Shown here in pieces: positions 1,408-11,485 of a stretch of DNA of 12,299 nt (positions within the stretch are counted from its first letter, which is position 1; the number at the start of each line of letters is the position of its first letter). The position numbers and the translations under genes are program-made. The stretch is from IMG/VR virus record IMGVR_UViG_2778261165_000013; one strand, written 5' to 3'. The notes under the pieces were generated by a model. That model ran no database searches. It was not told where the DNA came from and saw only the letters and a list, made by a program, of their open reading frames with translations. The stretch is from a virus (Duplodnaviria; Heunggongvirae; Uroviricota; Caudoviricetes).

Positions 1408-3411
1408 TTAACGAACCAGATGCAGGAAGTGCAGGTGTTTTTCGTACTGGTCCAGTATGTCATTAATCAGCTGTTCCTGATTCCAGCCCATTACATCATA
1501 ATTTTGGCCGCCCTCTTTGAGATAGACTTCAGCGCGATAATATCGATGTTGTTCACTCTGCTGCTCATCATTATCCAGCGCAGCGAGCGCGAAGGTCGGT
1601 GAGTTATACCCGCGAAGCCTCACTTCATATATATAATTCAGCTCGTTGCCCAAATCGACTTCAAGGCGAATACGATCCTCGGCGGCGTCACTGATGTGGC
1701 TTATCGTTCCCTGCTTGTTAAGTTCCTCCTGAACCAGCGTCATGGCGGGTTGGATAATGTCGTCCATAAAACGTTTCACAAGAGAGCGCTTCGGCAAATA
1801 CGCGATATTGCGTAACCTTCTCTGCCAGGGAATTGGGTTACGTGCAGCCGTAGGAGCAATAGTCGCCATGCTAAGGCTTTCACGCTTGGTCAAATCCCGA
1901 CGCAGGGCTTTTAACAGTCCGTATATGGATATTAATAAGATAACTGAGAAGGGCAATGCACTCGCTATCGTTACGGTTTGCAACGCACTCAGCCCCCCTG
2001 CGATCAGCAGGGCAATAGCAACAACGCCCATGAGCGATGCCCAGAAAATTCGCTGCCAGACGGGCGTGTTTGCCACCCCACCTGATGCCAGAGTATCCAC
2101 AACCATTGCCCCCGAATCAGCAGACGTTACAAAGAAGACGATGACCATCGCCATTGCAATGAATGACAGCACGGAAGAGAACGGGAAATGCTCCAGGAAA
2201 TTAAACAGGGCAAGCGCAACATCCTGCTGAACGGTATTGGCGAGGTCAGTGGCGCCCTGGTTCATGATGAGATAGATGGCGCTGTTTCCAAACACCGTCA
2301 TCCACATGAGCGTAAAGCCGGCGGGAACAAACAACACGCCAGTCACGAACTCACGAATTGTCCTGCCGCGGGAAACGCGTGCAATGAACATACCTACAAA
2401 CGGCGACCATGAAAGCCACCATCCCCAGTATAATAATGTCCAGCCCCCCAGCCAGTTGCTCGACTTGGGTTCATACGCGTAAAGGTTGAACGTTTTACTC
2501 ACCAGTTCCGACAGATAACCACCCGTATTTTCCACAAATGACTTCAGCAGAAGCACAGTGGGACCCAGGCACAAGACCAGCGCCAGGAGCAACACCGCCA
2601 GGCCCAGATTAAGCTCAGACAGGATGCGTATTCCCTTGTCCAGGCCGGACACCACCGAAATCGTCGCTAACCCCGTGATGACCACGATCAAAATGACCTG
2701 TACCGTTTCATTGATGGGCACGCCGAAAAGATGGTTCAAACCGGCATTCACCTGCAATACACCGTAACCCAGCGATGTTGCAACGCCAAAGACAGTGCCT
2801 ATCACGGCGAAGATATCAACCGCGTGGCCTATAGGCCCGTAAATGCGATCGCCGATAATGGGATAGAGCGCAGAACGCAGCGTTAAAGGCAGACCGTGAC
2901 GGTAACTGAAAAAGGCCAGAATCAGCGCCACGATGGCATAAATTGCCCATGCGTGCAGACCCCAGTGGAAGAACGTCAGGCGCATGGCTTCCTTCGCTGC
3001 CGCAACGGTCTCTGGAGTGCCGACAGGTGGCGAAAGATAATGCATCACAGGTTCGGCAACGCCAAAGAACATCAGGCCGATCCCCATCCCTGCCGAAAAA
3101 AGCATCGCGAACCAGGAGTGGTAGCTGAAATCAGGCTGCGCATGGTCTGGGCCCAGCTTTATATCACCGTAACGTGAGAGTCCAAGGAACGTGACGCTCA
3201 GTAAAATCAGGGCCACAGCAAGTATGTAGAACCAGCTGGCATTCGTGAAGATTTGTTGCTGAAGTAGTTTAAAATTTTTGTCGGCGACATCCGGGAATAC
3301 GGCGGCAAAGGCGACAAGAAGGAAAATTAGCAAAGCAGATGTAAAGAATACCGCTTTGTTAATCTGGCTTGTAGACTTCTTTGGGGTTGTATCATTTTCA
3401 CTCATAATCAT
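1408..3411 (-). CDS. BCCT-family transporter, BetT-like (choline/betaine/carnitine transporter paralog), 667 aa
   Basis: Long polytopic membrane protein with a BetT-like pattern (…GIGLMFFGVAEP…, …WTLLYWGWWLSWSPFVGMFIARVSRGRTIREF…) and a ~170-aa hydrophilic C-terminal tail ending DILDQYEKHLHFLHLVR, as in E. coli BetT. Not identical to my recollection of BetT itself. Confidence 0.88.
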   Translation of the reverse strand: MIMSENDTTPKKSTSQINKAVFFTSALLIFLLVAFAAVFPDVADKNFKLLQQQIFTNASWFYILAVALILLSVTFLGLSRYGDIKLGPDHAQPDFSYHSWFAMLFSAGMGIGLMFFGVAEPVMHYLSPPVGTPETVAAAKEAMRLTFFHWGLHAWAIYAIVALILAFFSYRHGLPLTLRSALYPIIGDRIYGPIGHAVDIFAVIGTVFGVATSLGYGVLQVNAGLNHLFGVPINETVQVILIVVITGLATISVVSGLDKGIRILSELNLGLAVLLLALVLCLGPTVLLLKSFVENTGGYLSELVSKTFNLYAYEPKSSNWLGGWTLLYWGWWLSWSPFVGMFIARVSRGRTIREFVTGVLFVPAGFTLMWMTVFGNSAIYLIMNQGATDLANTVQQDVALALFNFLEHFPFSSVLSFIAMAMVIVFFVTSADSGAMVVDTLASGGVANTPVWQRIFWASLMGVVAIALLIAGGLSALQTVTIASALPFSVILLISIYGLLKALRRDLTKRESLSMATIAPTAARNPIPWQRRLRNIAYLPKRSLVKRFMDDIIQPAMTLVQEELNKQGTISHISDAAEDRIRLEVDLGNELNYIYEVRLRGYNSPTFALAALDNDEQQSEQHRYYRAEVYLKEGGQNYDVMGWNQEQLINDILDQYEKHLHFLHLVR

Positions 3412-3745
3412 TTATTCCATTAATTAAATCCGCACTGGATAGAAGGTACTACCTCTCACAGAGTAGCAAAGTTCAACTGGCTATGCGGGGTTAATCGGAA
3501 TGCATGGTGGAATGAGTGCCGATACAAATCATCCTATATTCTAAGGAGTTTTAAGTTACTCAGCCTGCCAATTACTGGGGCATTTAATTTGTATGATCTG
3601 TATCAAAGCTGGGATATAAGTTAAGTGAAGTATATTAGGCACGAATTACCAGCGTCTGCTCTTGGCACAAAGCGGACAACCACGCTAGCTCTACCCTGTG
3701 CCACAAAATGTCAATTTGCATCTGAACTAATGCACTTTAATCTCG

Positions 3746-4168
3746 TCACTTCAATAAATACCGAACATCCCCCTGATAAAACGACAATATGCGCTGCATA
3801 ACTTCGCTCTTCCGGCACTCGCGACAGATTATGTTTAGGCGACTGTCGTAGCGACGTATTTCTCCGTCAGGTAATGACCAGATAAGGTCCGGATCAACCA
3901 CAACCGGTTTCTTCAGCTTTGCCCTCGATAATTTTTTGCGGGCATTTTGCCAGTCTTTACGAGCCTGTTCAGACGGGAATAACCCGTAGCCAGAATTGTA
4001 TACATCGCCACTGGCAACCAGCTCTCTGGCCAGAACGCTCATCAGATATCTTGTTGCCCCAGTTTTAGCTTCCAGTTGTCGTAACGTCTCGCGCCCACTC
4101 TGGCGTACGAGTTCAAGAACCTGCCCTTTAATTTTTTCCCGCTCTTCTTGTGTAAAAACTTTTGCCAC
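3746..4168 (-). CDS. Hypothetical 140-aa protein downstream of the replication-initiator gene (possible winged-helix/helper protein)
   Basis: ORF with a strong AGGAGG Shine-Dalgarno ~6 nt upstream of the ATG at 4168, co-oriented with and 40 bp downstream of the initiator-like gene. No family recognised. Confidence 0.55.
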   Translation of the reverse strand: MAKVFTQEEREKIKGQVLELVRQSGRETLRQLEAKTGATRYLMSVLARELVASGDVYNSGYGLFPSEQARKDWQNARKKLSRAKLKKPVVVDPDLIWSLPDGEIRRYDSRLNIICRECRKSEVMQRILSFYQGDVRYLLK

Positions 4169-4208
4169 AAGCCCTCCTGAAAATTACCTCATGACCAGAA
4201 ATTAACAC

Positions 4209-5279
4209 TTACCCCCTGAAGCCCGGCGGAATTTCGTTATCCGGTTCAGAAATATGATTCACACAACGCTGGTTGTTCGTGCCGCTTACCGGGAGCAACC
4301 AGGGGTTCTCAAAATTCCGGTCCGGTCCAAAAAACGTCGTCGCTCGCTGAACAAATTCCGTTCCCGTTTTCCCGGTAGCCGCCAAGTATCTTGCGTAACG
4401 CCTCACGCCATCCAGCATGGCCTCTGGTGGCACCCCCTCGCGTAATCTGGCCTTCCAGGCACTGAAAGCGGATTTCTTCGGGTTTGCCCCAGCACGCAAC
4501 GGGTACTCCCGCCAGACCTGTTCGAACACATCCGGATAATCCACTCGTCCCACAGACTGCCCGGTGTTTTCCGGGACTACCCGATCGGTTTCCCGCTGAA
4601 TGGCGGAATCGGCTTCAGGCTGCTGCAGTTGGTGTGATTGCTCCGCCCTTGCGGTCATCACCTGCTGCACAGCGCCCGAATCGGCTTTCAGCGCATACGC
4701 TGAATCGGCTTCCGGTGTCGTGCCTGCTGGCTGACCAAGATTGACGGTCTGAACATCCCCTGCCTGGTTCGTGGCGTTTTTTACGCCATGGACCATAGTG
4801 TTTTGATCTTCTTGATCTGTATCTTTATCTGTATCTTTATCTGTCGTGACTCGTCGTGACATGTGCGTGACATTTCGTGACGCGCCGTGACAATCGCCAT
4901 TTTGTTCCCGCTTTCTTTCCCTCTCTCGCTGCGCCCTCTTGCGCTCTGCAGGAGATTTTGCGGTTTGCGAAATATTGCCGTTGTCCTCTTTAAGCACCTG
5001 GCGTTTTTCCCATCCAGTGATTAAATCACCATCAAGTACCCGCCCCTGCATCGTCTGCAAAATTGAATCAATTACCTCTTCTGTCACGTCGAGCGCACTT
5101 GCCAAATCTTCTGTCGTGACATCAATGTGACCTCGCGTGACATTTCGTGACGCGCTCACCAGGAGGTGGATATACACTGCCATCACTGTTGCAATTGGCT
5201 GTCCTGACACCCTGGCAATTGTTCGCCACTTAGGGTCATTTGGCATGTCATGCCATAATCTGAGCCAGGCGTTAGCCAT
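4209..5279 (-). CDS. Phage replication-initiator-like protein (lambda O analog; position of ydaU in Rac) with origin iterons inside the coding sequence
   Basis: ORF of ~356 aa; the ATG at 5279 has a GAGGTGAG Shine-Dalgarno, while the ORF track starts at an upstream GTG at 5285. Sits immediately after the ydaT-like gene, as O follows cII in lambdoid phages. Contains two clusters of phased CGTGAC repeats, mirrored in the protein as a repeated ASRNVT segment and a low-complexity TDKDTDKDTD linker. Confidence 0.6.
   Translation of the reverse strand: MANAWLRLWHDMPNDPKWRTIARVSGQPIATVMAVYIHLLVSASRNVTRGHIDVTTEDLASALDVTEEVIDSILQTMQGRVLDGDLITGWEKRQVLKEDNGNISQTAKSPAERKRAQRERERKREQNGDCHGASRNVTHMSRRVTTDKDTDKDTDQEDQNTMVHGVKNATNQAGDVQTVNLGQPAGTTPEADSAYALKADSGAVQQVMTARAEQSHQLQQPEADSAIQRETDRVVPENTGQSVGRVDYPDVFEQVWREYPLRAGANPKKSAFSAWKARLREGVPPEAMLDGVRRYARYLAATGKTGTEFVQRATTFFGPDRNFENPWLLPVSGTNNQRCVNHISEPDNEIPPGFRG
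4817..4891. repeat. Candidate replication-origin iteron array 1: tandem 12-mer TCTGTATCTTTA x2, then five CGTGAC repeats phased at 10-11 bp
   Basis: CGTGAC at 4845, 4855, 4866, 4876 and 4886; AT-rich tandem 12-mers at 4817..4840; a polypyrimidine tract follows at ~4905..4945. Confidence 0.6.
5115..5155. repeat. Candidate iteron array 2: four YGTGAC repeats phased at 10-11 bp
   Basis: CGTGAC/TGTGAC at 5115, 5126, 5136 and 5146. The 21-mer GCGTGACATTTCGTGACGCGC at 5135..5155 is identical to 4865..4885. Confidence 0.55.
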
Positions 5280-5350
5280 ACTCACCTCTTTTGATACCGA
5301 ATCTTTTTACTCACAAATTGCCGGAAGTGATCCGGTATGAATATTGCGAG

Positions 5351-5776
5351 TCAATGCACAGCCACAATATTTCCTGCAGGGCCACCACGATTCATCTGGT
5401 TGAAACCAGCGATCGCCACTGCGACAAAATCATCAGCGTCTCTCACCAGTCGTTCCCGCGTCTCCACTAGTTCCCGAAAATAGGCTGAGCTATGGCTGCG
5501 CATTCGGGCCACCAGCAGAGGTGGCATTGCTTTTTCGATAGCTGGTAACAACGCCTGAATTTTTTCAACTGCATCAGGGGTGTCTTTCTCTACCCAGCGG
5601 AAAATTTTCTGGGTATTGCGAGCCAGGGCTTCCGGATGGCTGTCGTCATACAGTTCTGGGAACGTCATACCCAGTTCAAAATAAGCCCTGGTTATTTCAG
5701 CTGCCGGAACTTTTTCACCGTCCGGATGCGCCCAGGCATTCATCGCCATGCGGATGTGTTCATGCTTGATTTTCAT
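5351..5776 (-). CDS. ydaT: YdaT-like protein (CII-position gene of the Rac immunity region)
   Basis: 141-aa ORF with an AGGAG Shine-Dalgarno 9 nt upstream of the ATG at 5776; directly downstream of, and overlapping by 17 nt, the Cro-like gene. Symbol assigned by synteny and size; the sequence was not verified from memory. Confidence 0.6.
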   Translation of the reverse strand: MKIKHEHIRMAMNAWAHPDGEKVPAAEITRAYFELGMTFPELYDDSHPEALARNTQKIFRWVEKDTPDAVEKIQALLPAIEKAMPPLLVARMRSHSSAYFRELVETRERLVRDADDFVAVAIAGFNQMNRGGPAGNIVAVH

Positions 5777-6041
5777 GAATCAAGCTCCTAGAAAGTGGTT
5801 GTGTTAACATTTTGGTATCTTCCAGCTCGGGCCAAATATTCATCCAATCAAAAGGCCTTAGTTGCTGACGTGTAACTTCACCATTACTGGCTCGCTCAAT
5901 AAGGACACATAACGATGCCCCTAACACTTGACCTTTACTCAATGCCTTTCTTAGATAACCGATGCTGGTACCACACTCGCATGCAAACATACGCTGTTCA
6001 TCTGACGAAAGAGAATTGAGAAATATTCTTAATTCTTCCAT
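5760..6041 (-). CDS. ydaS: Cro-type helix-turn-helix regulator (YdaS-like)
   Basis: 93-aa ORF with an AAGGAG Shine-Dalgarno 7 nt upstream of the ATG at 6041; helix-turn-helix-like segment QRMFACECGTSIGYLRKALSKGQ; divergent from the repressor gene across an operator-containing 100-bp spacer. Confidence 0.65.
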   Translation of the reverse strand: MEELRIFLNSLSSDEQRMFACECGTSIGYLRKALSKGQVLGASLCVLIERASNGEVTRQQLRPFDWMNIWPELEDTKMLTQPLSRSLIHENQA

Positions 6042-6070
6042 AGCTACTCCTTAGTAAACACAGCAAAGAA

Positions 6071-6148
6071 TACCCATAGGTAAACAAAAGTCAATACCCA
6101 CAGGTTGTTTACCTTGCAGTAATCGCATCTATTATTTACCTATGGACA
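6071..6148. promoter_or_regulatory. Operator cluster (OR-like) in the divergent ydaS / racR control region
   Basis: Copies of a 12-bp near-palindrome TACCYATRGGTA: TACCCATAGGTA at 6071..6082, TACCCACAGGTT at 6095..6106 (24 bp later) and TACCTATGGACA at 6137..6148, the last overlapping the racR start codon. Confidence 0.6.
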
Positions 6149-6561
6149 AATATGAATTTAGACGACAGCAACTCATCAAAATTCGTGATGAGAAATGCGA
6201 TGGTAAAGCGGTTAACGTGGCCAGAAAGATCGGGCGCGAGCCTTCTTATGTATCAAGAATGTTGTACCCAGAGGGGAAAAAGGGAAAAAAACGGATCGCT
6301 GATGATATGGTGGAGATTATCGAAGAGTCCTTTGGGTTACCCCGGGGATGGATGGATGGTATCGTTTCATCATCAACGAACACAGCCTCCAGTTATGAAA
6401 CAAGGGTTCTAACGCCACGACAACGTATTTTTTTAGATCTCTTAGACGAACTGCCAGAAAGTGAAGCGGATAACTTATTAAAAACTCTTGAAGAGAAAAA
6501 ACAGTATTACAATATGATCTACGAAGAAATCCGTAAAAAGAAAGCACAAAACGCATCATAG
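6142..6561 (+). CDS. racR: Prophage repressor-like helix-turn-helix protein (CI analog, RacR position)
   Basis: 139-aa ORF with an N-terminal helix-turn-helix (GKAVNVARKIGREPSYVSRML), divergent from the Cro-like gene and flanked on both sides by the palindromic operator motif. No in-frame upstream start exists before a stop at 6055. Length differs from the 158 aa I recall for K-12 RacR, so this may be a variant immunity type. Confidence 0.65.
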   Translation: MDKYEFRRQQLIKIRDEKCDGKAVNVARKIGREPSYVSRMLYPEGKKGKKRIADDMVEIIEESFGLPRGWMDGIVSSSTNTASSYETRVLTPRQRIFLDLLDELPESEADNLLKTLEEKKQYYNMIYEEIRKKKAQNAS

Positions 6562-6603
6562 CTCACCAAACAACTAGTCACCAGTTAAGACACCGCAAAA
6601 AGT

Positions 6604-6644
6604 TACCCATGGGTATTTACTTTTTAAATACCTATGGGTATCCT
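6604..6644 (+). promoter_or_regulatory. Second operator pair (OL-like) with candidate promoter for the ydaG-ydaF early transcript
   Basis: Perfect palindrome TACCCATGGGTA at 6604..6615 and TACCTATGGGTA at 6629..6640 (25 bp centre to centre). Possible -35 TTTACT (6616..6621) and -10 TATCCT (6639..6644) with a 17-bp spacer overlapping the operators. Confidence 0.5.
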
Positions 6645-6814
6645 TCTTTTCATACCAACCCACCCCGCCCCACAGAATGCAGGGCAATACTCGAGTTACC
6701 AGGCAGTGGTCAGGGGTTAAGTAGCCAGCCCGAGGCGTAAGAACATGACGGCGGGATTCAAATTTTGCAGTGCAGCAGTTAGTTCCGCCACCCGGCGTTA
6801 AGGGGAGAGATAAG

Positions 6815-6959: not shown

Positions 6960-7115
6960 ATGCAAAAAATCGACCTCGGCAACAACGAATCCCTGGTGTG
7001 CGGCGTGTTCCCCAACCAGGATGGAACGTTCACTGCCATGACGTATACCAAAAGCAAAACATTTAAAACCGAAACTGGTGCGCGCCGATGGTTGGAGAAG
7101 CACACAGTAAGCTAA
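6960..7115 (+). CDS. ydaF: Rac prophage small protein YdaF (51 aa)
   Basis: Hand-translated: MQKIDLGNNESLVCGVFPNQDGTFTAMTYTKSKTFKTETGARRWLEKHTVS. Starts 10 nt after the ydaG stop; its 3-prime end overlaps the convergent sieB stop by 4 nt. Confidence 0.7.
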   Translation: MQKIDLGNNESLVCGVFPNQDGTFTAMTYTKSKTFKTETGARRWLEKHTVS

Positions 7116-7600
7116 CGATTAAAACGTCTACTCCTGCTGTTCCAGAATAACTTCATAAAATGGGAGTATTTTTCGGTGACGAGATAATAAGAACAGTTTG
7201 CGCTATCACTCTGATGTTGAATGATGCCCTTCCGTTCTAATTTTTTCATAACCAGGTTACGGCAAGGAGAAGTGATAATAAGATTTCCTGTTTTAAGGAA
7301 ATCTTTAAATACAGCGATTTCTTTCTCAGATAAACGAAGCAATACTCGTTGCTCTGGTAGTAATGAATAATGCTTTTGAATATGTGCTCGCAATCTTGAG
7401 AAGGAAATGGCGACCACGAAAGAAAAGGCAAAAACGATAATCTGAAAGAGCCAAGGTATTTCAGTATAAGCATTGAATGCGACAGTAAACTCTTTCGGTA
7501 TCAGCCAGAGAGTGAGACCAAAAATGATAATCGTATACATAAGTCTTTCGAGTGGCTCGTTAGCAAAAAGTTTCAACAATGGAGTAAATACATCCAACAT
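7112..7600 (-). CDS. sieB: Superinfection exclusion protein B (SieB), 162 aa
   Basis: Sequence from MLDVFTPLLKLFANEPLERLMYTIIIFGLTLWLIPKEF… recognised as Rac SieB; membrane helices present. The ATG at 7600 has a GAGAG Shine-Dalgarno; the ORF-track start at 7723 is an unsupported upstream extension. Confidence 0.85.
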   Translation of the reverse strand: MLDVFTPLLKLFANEPLERLMYTIIIFGLTLWLIPKEFTVAFNAYTEIPWLFQIIVFAFSFVVAISFSRLRAHIQKHYSLLPEQRVLLRLSEKEIAVFKDFLKTGNLIITSPCRNLVMKKLERKGIIQHQSDSANCSYYLVTEKYSHFMKLFWNSRSRRFNR

Positions 7601-7817
7601 ATCAATAACTCTCAACTGTAAGGGTATTGAAATGTTAACACAAGCTCTCGCTGTAGGGGTATAGCCGAGACCACCGAAGCCCGGAGGTGGTGAAATAAAA
7701 CCGGGCACAACACGAAGGCGCATTTCCGATATCCATAAAGAGTCGGTCTTGTCTGTTAAATTTAAATGGTGGGAGTGCGCCTCCGGTTGTAAATAACGAC
7801 ATTGCTGTGTGTAGTCC

Positions 7818-8884: not shown

Positions 8885-11485
8885 ATGAGCACAAAACCAC
8901 TCTTCCTGTTACGGAAAGCGAAAAAATCATCCGGTGAACCTGACGTCGTCCTGTGGGCAAGCAACGATTTTGAATCGACCTGTGCCACTCTGGACTACCT
9001 GATCGTTAAGTCAGGTAAAAAACTGAGCAGCTATTTTAAAGCTGTTGCCACGAATTTTCCTGTCGTTAATGACCTGCCCGCTGAAGGTGAGATCGATTTT
9101 ACCTGGAGTGAACGCTATCAACTCAGCAAAGACTCCATGACATGGGAACTAAAACCGGGAGCAGCACCAGACAACGCTCACTATCAAGGCAATACCAACG
9201 TCAACGGCGAAGACATGACTGAGATTGAGGAGAATATGCTACTCCCAATTTCTGGCCAGGAACTGCCCATTCGTTGGCTTGCTCAACACGGCAGCGAAAA
9301 ACCGGTAACGCACGTTTCACGCGACGGACTCCAGGCATTACACATTGCTCGGGCTGAAGAACTACCGGCTGTTACTGCCCTGGCTGTTTCCCACAAAACC
9401 AGCCTGCTCGACCCGCTGGAAATTCGCGAACTCCACAAACTGGTTCGTGACACTGACAAAGTTTTCCCTAATCCTGGTAATTCAAACCTGGGACTGATAA
9501 CTGCTTTTTTCGAAGCATACCTGAACGCTGACTACACCGATCGAGGACTGCTGACAAAAGAGTGGATGAAGGGTAATCGTGTTTCACACATCACTCGCAC
9601 GGCTTCCGGTGCTAATGCTGGCGGCGGAAACCTCACCGATCGCGGCGAAGGTTTCGTACACGATCTGACGTCACTGGCGCGCGACGTAGCCACTGGCGTA
9701 CTGGCCCGTTCAATGGATCTGGACATCTATAACCTTCATCCGGCACACGCTAAACGCATTGAGGAAATTATCGCTGAAAATAAACCGCCCTTTTCTGTTT
9801 TCCGCGACAAATTCATCACCATGCCTGGCGGGCTGGATTATTCCCGCGCCATCGTGGTTGCGTCCGTAAAAGAAGCACCAATTGGGATCGAGGTCATCCC
9901 CGCGCACGTCACTGAATATCTGAACAAAGTACTGACTGAAACCGATCATGCCAACCCTGATCCGGAAATCGTGGATATTGCCTGCGGTCGCTCCTCTGCC
10001 CCGATGCCGCAGCGAGTAACAGAAGAAGGAAAACAGGATGATGAAGAAAAACCGCAACCATCTGGAACAACGGCAGTTGAACAGGGAGAGGCTGAAACAA
10101 TGGAACCGGACGCAACTGAACATCATCAGGACACGCAGCCGCTGGATGCTCAGTCACAGGTAAATTCTGTTGATGCGAAATATCAGGAACTGCGGGCAGA
10201 ACTCCATGAAGCCCGGAAAAACATTCCATCAAAAAATCCTGTCGATGCCGATAAATTGCTTGCTGCATCACGTGGTGAATTTGTTGACGGAATTAGCGAC
10301 CCGAACGATCCGAAATGGGTAAAGGGGATCCAGACTCGCGATTGTGTGTACCAGAACCAGCCAGAAACGGAAAAAACCAGCCCAGATATGAATCAACCTG
10401 AGCCAGTAGTGCAACAGGAACCGGAAATAGCCTGCAATGCCTGCGGCCAGACTGGCGGGGATAACTGCCCTGACTGTGGTGCGGTGATGGGCGACGCAAC
10501 ATACCAGGAAACATTCGCTGAAGAGAGTCAGGTTGAAGCTAAGGAAAATGATCCGGAGGAAATGGAAGGCGCTGAACATCCGCACAATGAGAATGCTGGC
10601 AGCGATCCGCATCGCGATTGCAGTGATGAAACTGGCGAAGTCGCAGATCCCGTAATCGTAGAAGACATAGAGCCAGGTATTTATTACGGAATTTCGAATG
10701 AGAATTACCACGCGGGTCCCGGTATCAGTAAGTCTCAGCTCGATGACATTGCTGATACTCCGGCACTATATTTGTGGCGTAAAAATGCCCCCGTGGACAC
10801 CACAAAGACAAAAACGCTCGATTTAGGAACTGCTTTCCACTGCCGGGTACTTGAACCGGAAGAATTCAGTAACCGCTTTATCGTAGCACCTGAATTTAAC
10901 CGCCGTACAAACGCCGGAAAAGAAGAAGAGAAAGCGTTTCTGATGGAATGCGCAAGCACAGGAAAAACGGTTATCACTGCGGAAGAAGGCCGGAAAATTG
11001 AACTCATGTATCAAAGCGTTATGGCTTTGCCGCTGGGGCAATGGCTTGTTGAAAGCGCCGGACACGCTGAATCATCAATTTACTGGGAAGATCCTGAAAC
11101 AGGAATTTTGTGTCGGTGCCGTCCGGACAAAATTATCCCTGAATTTCACTGGATCATGGACGTGAAAACTACGGCGGATATTCAACGATTCAAAACCGCT
11201 TATTACGACTACCGCTATCACGTTCAGGATGCATTCTACAGTGACGGTTATGAAGCACAGTTTGGAGTGCAGCCAACTTTCGTTTTTCTGGTTGCCAGCA
11301 CAACTATTGAATGCGGACGTTATCCGGTTGAAATTTTCATGATGGGCGAAGAAGCAAAACTGGCAGGTCAACAGGAATATCACCGCAATCTGCGAACCCT
11401 GTCTGACTGCCTGAATACCGATGAATGGCCAGCTATTAAGACATTATCACTGCCCCGCTGGGCTAAGGAATATGCAAATGACTAA
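8885..11485 (+). CDS. recE: Exodeoxyribonuclease VIII (RecE), full length 866 aa
   Basis: 866-aa ORF starting [29 protein letters not shown]… and ending …[13 protein letters not shown], recognised as E. coli Rac RecE. GAGG Shine-Dalgarno upstream; its stop overlaps the recT start in the ATGACTAAG arrangement. Confidence 0.95.

Follow-up and report, generated by a model that had tools for sequence, protein, structure and literature searches.

We analyzed a 12,299-nucleotide (nt) stretch of viral DNA (Caudoviricetes; IMG/VR record IMGVR_UViG_2778261165_000013), here called the window, and found that its segment 4765-5151 is probably the vegetative replication origin of a Rac-type lambdoid prophage, placed within the gene of its own initiator and bound by that protein. 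The gene, identified as an open reading frame (ORF) with its translation, lies at 4209-5279 on the minus strand with the ATG at 5279 and encodes 356 amino acids (aa); its RefSeq name is 'phage replisome organizer'. It carries two arrays of a phased hexamer, GTCACG in the coding direction and CGTGAC on the plus strand, and an AT-rich tract. The original prediction, made from the letters alone, had proposed that such iterons and AT-rich element form an origin inside the initiator gene in the manner of ori-lambda, and comparative evidence strongly supports this reading. The anatomy of the region, selection on the repeats at the DNA level, a coordinated change of motif in the two arrays and the conservation of the architecture across the family are established; we infer the identity of the repeat-binding protein, unwinding at the AT-rich tract, looping between the arrays and recruitment of a helicase.

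The two arrays consist of a 6-bp core with weak flanks, repeated with a period of 10-11 bp. The origin-proximal array L (4845-4891, minus strand) contains five copies of GTCACG, with plus-strand starts at 4886, 4876, 4866, 4855 and 4845. Array N (5115-5151, minus strand) lies about 260 bp upstream of it and contains GTCACG at 5146-5151, 5136-5141 and 5115-5120 and GTCACA at 5126-5131. Eight of the nine CGTGAC copies claimed originally are thus exact, while the one at 5126 is TGTGAC and has one mismatch; most homologs have the exact hexamer at this position. The copy-to-copy spacings are 10/11/10/10 in array L and 11/10/10 in array N, so that the proposed distance of one helical turn was recovered in both. 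Counted on both strands of the window, the hexamer is present 13 times, compared with 5.2 expected copies, and none of 200 shuffles reached 13. A 21-bp block said to be common to the arrays was found as exactly identical copies of GCGTGACATTTCGTGACGCGC at 4865-4885 and 5135-5155. We also identified a single inverted hexamer that had been missed earlier (5083-5088; GTCACG on the plus strand and CGTGAC on the coding strand, ORF nt 192); transcription reaches it about 30 bp after array N, and it has a counterpart at the matching position in many homologs (reverse-complement positions 186-195). A promoter-like match within array L (4867-4894, plus strand) was rejected: GTGACA resembles TTGACA, and the scan returned no more promoter-like sites than shuffled sequences did.

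Array N encodes aa 43-55 and array L aa 130-145, and the repeats could in principle be a mere by-product of a repeated peptide motif or of a low-complexity protein. The peptide ASRNVT indeed appears twice (aa 43-48 and 133-138), and the linker encoded by array L is of low complexity. The period of 10-11 nt is not a multiple of three, however, and the hexamer is therefore read in all three frames, being translated as Cys-His-(Gly), Ser-Arg and Val-Thr. We shuffled synonymous codons within the gene, retaining the protein and the codon pool, and in 1,000 runs obtained a mean of 1.56 copies and a maximum of 5; none reached the 8 observed, and the outcome was likewise 0/1000 in 21 of the 26 genes tested. 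In a codon alignment of 28 diverged genes with GC contents of 0.37-0.68, the share of the commonest codon at conserved four- and sixfold degenerate residues was approximately 0.25-0.6 outside the array and approximately 0.8-1.0 under array N (S44 TCA, 0.79; V47 GTC, 1.00; T48 ACG, 1.00; G50 GGT, 0.89; H51 CAC, 1.00; V54 GTC, 0.88; T55 ACG, 0.92), with similar values under the inverted copy (V65 GTG, 1.00; T66 ACA, 0.76). As the other synonymous sites of that alignment vary freely, an artefact of close relatedness is unlikely. Recurrence of the N-site peptide in the linker was weak among 136 representatives, the longest shared peptide being 3.67 within and 3.08 between proteins, because the frames differ. 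The use of three frames, the deficit of copies in the shuffles and the frozen synonymous codons show that the repeats are maintained as DNA. They are DNA-level signals under selection; the peptide motif, which the original prediction had kept as an alternative, is excluded on these grounds, and we give next to no credence to a protein-driven by-product of any kind.

The conservation of the arrays was studied with a scan of one genome per species, which yielded 51 loci, of which the 37 with the N-terminal domain of the initiator were analyzed; extra loci were taken from metagenomes and phage records. The genera include Escherichia, Serratia, Rahnella, Pantoea, Erwinia, Enterobacter, Pseudomonas and Bordetella as well as Acidovorax, Aquitalea, Chromobacterium, Gilvimarinus, Marinobacter, Sphingomonas and others. 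Two or more copies of a single hexamer occur at each of the two sites (ORF nt ~125-185 and nt ~360-530) in 38 of 46 genes. Array N typically occupies nt ~129-165 with spacings of 10/10/11, and array L is kept at nt ~380-460 in 38 of the 46 homologs. Across genes, successive copies are 10 bp apart 125 times, 11 bp apart 34 times and 21 bp apart 11 times. The hexamer itself differs: 27 genes have GTCACG, six GTAACG, four CGAACG and one GCAACG, the type varying by lineage with both arrays of one gene carrying the identical type. In Ralstonia phage Firinga, with 38% identity, five copies of GCAACG are found at nt 130-182 and four at 401-431. This coordinated change of motif is the strongest argument for a single binding protein that would read both arrays. 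A separate scan of viral contigs returned only copies of 97-100% identity and is informative on insertions and deletions, not on divergence.

The single protein could also be something other than the initiator, such as a host factor, the neighboring cII/YdaT-like or DUF977 protein, or a packaging or partition protein, and short phased repeats in two clusters are in fact known from plasmid centromeres and terminase recognition sites. Against such an unrelated binder, from genus to genus the arrays remain linked to the N-terminal domain, the neighboring genes and the C-terminal domain being variable, and the motif variants track the initiator lineages; four motif variants would not be explained by a host factor shared among Escherichia, Pseudomonas, Bordetella and Ralstonia. 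We consider this explanation very unlikely.

The sequence flanking array L has the features of a DNA-unwinding element. The candidate tract at 4801-4844 adjoins the first array and, as proposed originally, contains an AT-rich tandem 12-mer, TCTTTATCTGTA, which we located at 4810-4844 (period 12, 2.9 copies, 95% matches). The GC content falls to 0.275 at 4800-4839, and the tract includes the 41-mer with the lowest stability in the gene (-44.7 vs. -58.7 +/- 3.8 kcal/mol). In protein terms, it encodes (T)DKD repeats. The same arrangement holds across the family: in 37 of 38 genes, the second array is followed by 40 nt of AT-rich sequence (0.69, compared with 0.45 gene-wide), usually of the form (GATAAA)n. 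Two of the three GATC (Dam) sites of the gene fall in the tract (window 4805-4826), and GATCTGTATCTTT at 4814 differs from the oriC 13-mer consensus GATCTNTTNTTTT by two mismatches; these resemblances may be coincidence or a shared grammar of unwinding elements. The copy number of the 12-mer differs among near-identical prophages. An extra 12-nt unit is present in the tract at ORF nt 435 (window ~4845) in five loci (L122, L131, L132, L136 and L137), and additional hexamers at both arrays are present in the gene of protein P0003, making the near-identical prophages polymorphic in length (proteins P0003, P0004 and P0019). Most of array L, the AT-rich tract and the palindrome described below are missing from a variant of 302 aa (P0019), which may be an origin-deleted copy.

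Directly after the AT-rich tract, just beyond the boundary of the region outlined earlier and missed there, we found an imperfect palindrome with 13-bp arms and a 5-nt A/T loop (4765-4795, encoding MVHGVKNATNQ). It is kept as GGTTCATGGCGAAAAA.CGCCAGTGAACC in three homologs with about 50% protein identity and the same C-terminal type, and 7 of 8 same-amino-acid codons within it are identical in these homologs, compared with about one-third elsewhere in the gene; the conservation rests on four sequences. The palindrome is absent from homologs with other C-terminal modules. Judged by these comparisons, the origin would reach out to the palindrome. On the other side of array L, a polypyrimidine tract had been listed among the origin features. 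The tract is present, as a purine-rich coding stretch on the minus strand (4896-4940; AT skew of -1.0 at 4900-4939), but its role in the origin did not hold up: it encodes a conserved Arg/Lys/Glu-rich basic helix, AERKRAQRERERKREQ (aa 110-126, with invariant Arg residues), and therefore need not belong to the origin. It is probably a by-product of coding and not an origin element in itself.

The layout bears on whether the arrays might be sites at which the initiator acts in regulation, through autorepression, a roadblock to transcription in rep or titration, with replication starting elsewhere. Comparative data reveal selection on the sites and not their role; array N is situated toward the 5' end of the gene, well away from the AT-rich tract, and two separate clusters recall the control iterons of plasmids. 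On the other hand, the least stable DNA of the gene directly follows array L, an AT-rich run follows it in nearly all homologs, and in this subfamily a conserved palindrome comes next, which together make the canonical layout of an origin (PMC7466680). We saw no other combination of repeats and AT-rich sequence in the window that could be a candidate. A purely regulatory function is therefore unlikely, and we retain the interpretation of the segment as an origin.

The properties of the protein agree with this interpretation. The 356-aa initiator has a full-length match to phrog_3729 'replication initiation protein' (PHROG profiles, E 8e-257) and weak matches to two PHROG 'replisome organizer' families (phrog_4880 at 3.9e-6 and phrog_5968 at 2e-4); the Pfam scan gave no families at E <= 0.01, and homology to lambda O was thus not detected, all of the PHROG matches being to other types of initiator. 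The gene order is repressor-like, cro/YdaS-like, cII/YdaT-like, rep and Ren-like, which together with the phrog_3729 match and the RefSeq name places the initiator at the position of lambda O, in agreement with the earlier assignment. In an AlphaFold2 model based on 31 sequences (mean predicted local distance difference test [pLDDT] score of 58, low because half of the protein is disordered), the N-terminal part is a helical, DNA-binding-like domain (aa 1-95; helices 2-11, 16-25, 29-45, 56-63 and 67-77, then a short strand pair). It is followed by the basic helix at aa 110-126, a disordered linker (127-243), a confident C-terminal domain (aa 245-330, pLDDT >90) and a DnaT-like tail. Array N codes for the end of helix 3 and the loop after it (pLDDT <50 at aa 47-52), where homologs carry insertions, while array L, the AT-rich tract and the palindrome together encode aa 130-172 of the 356; the earlier statement that the first array encodes a low-complexity linker fits the predicted disordered segment. 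According to the model, the binding sites would occupy parts of the protein that tolerate sequence constraint, given their placement in a low-confidence loop and a disordered linker.

The last 24 aa (333-356, window 4209-4280), ending in …SEPDNEIPPGFRG, are nearly identical to the C-terminus of host DnaT. Only these ~24 residues match DnaT, with an NCBIfam E-value of 7e-4, far below the cut-off, and an E-value of 0.003 for PDB 6aep. Related initiators carry Pfam PF17948 ('DnaT-like ssDNA-binding domain-containing' proteins), whereas the 356-aa protein is without it. The C-terminal domain of DnaT forms filaments on single-stranded DNA in replication restart (PMC13377028). The same PPGFRG tail is shared by the otherwise unrelated YdaU of Escherichia coli K-12. 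That phage initiators with no other relationship have a short tail in common suggests a peptide at which a host replication protein docks. We infer that the C-terminal part would link the opened origin to the host helicase machinery.

Put together, these elements suggest the following course of initiation. Early transcription from the cro-side promoter would yield the initiator and cross the origin, and the N-terminal helical domain of the protein would bind the GTCACG hexamers at both arrays. Because the hexamers recur every 10-11 bp, successive sites would face one side of the helix, allowing bound protomers to line up, and initiator oligomers would probably bridge arrays L and N. The stress of oligomerization would open the 44 bp of AT-rich 12-mer repeats, bounded by the small palindrome, and the C-terminal domain with its DnaT-like tail would bring in the host helicase machinery, DnaB/DnaC. 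More tentatively, and with some doubt on our part, array N might be the regulatory second half of a two-part origin, embedded in the part of the initiator gene that encodes the DNA-binding domain of the protein. If so, binding at both arrays would loop ~260 bp of the initiator gene and couple initiation to the shut-off of the initiator, a plasmid-like form of iteron control by looping or handcuffing in a phage. The two-part design would then have been kept across more than 1,000 clusters of 50% identity in Proteobacteria, with specificity shifting by coordinated change of the arrays.

Several observations weigh against the interpretation of the segment as an origin bound by its own initiator. 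A few low-GC lineages are without array N and have about two copies left at the linker site, and array N is therefore not universal. Near-identical prophages contain occasional substitutions inside the hexamers (ORF nt 132 and 391). No exact DnaA box or integration host factor (IHF) consensus was found in 4200-5400. The N-terminal domain had no Pfam match and structure searches returned no significant fold match, so that it is a putative DNA-binding domain. Among characterized phages, none has this domain, and we found in the literature neither a description of this type of origin nor a studied member of the family defined by the N-terminal domain and origin. Finally, the present copy belongs to a decayed prophage and may be silent and never fire.

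The prophage is of the Rac type: in E. coli 2018-06-4CC, an identical region adjoins intR-xisR-ralR-recT-recE at ttcA. Upstream of the initiator gene, the window contains the cII/YdaT-like (5351-5776) and cro/YdaS-like (5760-6041) genes, a repressor-like gene on the plus strand (6142-6561), SieB (7112-7723) and RecE (8885-11485); on the other side are the DUF977/Ren-like gene (3746-4168), a BCCT-family transporter (1408-3411) and a DUF2254 membrane protein (190-1359). A promoter-like site upstream of the cro/YdaS-like gene (6067-6094, minus strand), a consensus match only, is the likely source of transcription through the cII-like gene, rep and the origin and would be the analogue of pR. No helicase or loader gene adjoins the initiator in this prophage, and a P-like gene is also absent from its 3' side. 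The Rfam scan of 3600-6700 found no RNA family. In K-12 Rac, trkG occupies the place of the BCCT transporter and the DUF2254 gene after the replication genes. The 2018-06-4CC region continues into LysR/MFS genes, an insertion sequence (IS) fragment and Qin-type genes (relBE, hokD, ydfV and flxA); with this cargo and Qin-type genes downstream, the element is a Rac remnant fused to cargo and a second prophage remnant.

Comparison of related elements showed module boundaries that match those of lambdoid phages. O157-type variants have only 4815-5151 in common with the window, covering the arrays and the N-terminal domain at ~85% identity and with the junction in the AT-rich tract, while Stx phages have only the C-terminal part, 4209-4687, in common. 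Such joint movement of the origin and the DNA-binding half of the initiator is the pattern classically seen in lambdoid phages. The genes 3' of the N-terminal domain and arrays are DnaC/IstB-like, DnaB-like helicase or others, or else DUF977 without a loader, as here and in phage Evi. Downstream genes of individual loci (L014, L017, L144 and others) encode DnaC-like or DnaB-like proteins, long products, some with Walker A, or small unknown proteins. Given such wide variation among relatives, the N-terminal domain and origin would form a module that has been combined with many solutions for delivering the helicase. In two loci of Serratia and Pantoea (L038 and L047), a different middle part, with the motif YVYYV...GIS.NPW.R, is attached to the N-terminal domain, and hexamer arrays are absent; these loci may represent a different fusion with another origin design.

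The element is common in databases. The initiator gene is 96-99% identical (window 4100-5400) in seven deposited phage genomes, including Evi, in which no helicase-loader gene is annotated beside the initiator, and Tritos. Near-identity of the gene in deposited phages makes it likely that the module is functional. Of 5426 complete E. coli genomes, 2036 contain the 396-bp origin segment. The N-terminal domain family comprises 2252 clusters of 50% identity at E <= 1e-3 and 1013 at E <= 1e-10; phage records with the domain number only 25, model phages 0. Two Pseudomonas aeruginosa records filed as non-mobilizable plasmids, one of them the 50.9-kb circular CP124671 (L138), are lambdoid phage genomes with CII, NinB/NinG and an S24 repressor. 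Both contain the N-terminal domain with its arrays (70% DNA identity) and, after it, a DnaB-like helicase, and are probably circular phage DNA assembled as plasmids.

Among the closest known systems is the origin of lambda, whose iterons and AT-rich tract lie centrally within gene O (PMC7466680, PMC3349717). As in lambda and the Stx phages, the origin here lies midway in the initiator gene, between N-terminal DNA-binding and C-terminal parts, and, as transcription proceeds, several direct repeats come before an AT-rich unwinding region (PMC7466680, PMC3349717). Repeat number also alters the protein length, exchange of modules breaks at the origin, and the gene order is equal. Unlike ori-lambda, which has four to six 18-bp iterons (ITN1-4; PMC3349717), the present origin has a 6-bp core per 10-11 bp, and a second array and an inverted copy are placed ~260 bp upstream, where the DNA-binding domain is encoded. 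No relationship of the protein to lambda O could be detected, and no P-like gene follows.

In phage SPP1, oriL is located inside gene 38, and replisome-organizer genes of Gram-positive phages contain similar origins. The product of gene 38, G38P, was reportedly described by Missich et al. in 1997 as binding two separate regions of the genome (cited in PMC5615212). G38P is a replisome organizer that binds oriL, starts theta replication and recruits the helicase loader and helicase (PMC5615212). The present initiator resembles it in the name 'replisome organizer' and in having two putative binding regions, and PHROG 'replisome organizer' families match it weakly. The homology is weak and below Pfam detection, however, and the SPP1 sites are far apart while both arrays here are in one gene.

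Iteron plasmids and the ori/crr pair of P4 have two clusters of initiator sites that cooperate or control initiation. The two separated clusters of one short, putatively initiator-binding repeat described here are similar, but the clusters of those replicons are intergenic, with units usually of 8-22 bp, whereas ours lie inside the coding sequence of the initiator and lack a DnaA box.

The relation to the Rac prophage of K-12 requires more care. The origin had been assigned to the Rac-type element, which its position at ttcA/intR bears out; it is not K-12 oriJ, however, as K-12 carries ydaU/ydaV. At the equivalent place after ydaS/ydaT, the genes of K-12 Rac are ydaU (DUF1376) and ydaV, the latter a DnaC-like loader of its own, and alignment of YdaU with the 356-aa initiator is confined to the last 19 residues of the former. 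OriJ is cited as an active origin (PMC3945230), and its mapping concerns an analogous module, neither confirming nor refuting the present one. The two elements agree in the type of prophage, the position after ydaS/ydaT, the internal repeats in the initiator gene and the PPGFRG tail (K-12 ydaU 3' end, L002 5920-5977); they differ in the initiator, the repeats and the presence of a loader. In K-12 MG1655 ydaU (L002 5261-5640), we found five GATGTTCAA-like copies, three of them at 33-bp intervals in the linker and one or two in the N-terminal part, and then AAAGATACAGATAAAGAT, an AT-rich (T)DKD-coding run of the same kind. Such repeats and AT-rich run suggest that oriJ may also lie inside its own initiator gene. 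The present origin would be the counterpart of oriJ with a different sequence.

An origin inside the initiator gene is of a well-known kind, while the two-array design of helically phased 6-bp repeats, with coordinated change of motif across a family, appears to be undescribed. The short and predictable motif allows annotation of origins in many prophages, and a defined origin gives a means of asking whether "cryptic" Rac-type elements still replicate and of building phage-derived replicons. The four natural motif variants with their matched proteins constitute a natural experiment in the joint change of initiator and origin specificity, and the arrays are a clean example of protein-coding and DNA-binding-site constraints acting on the same bases.

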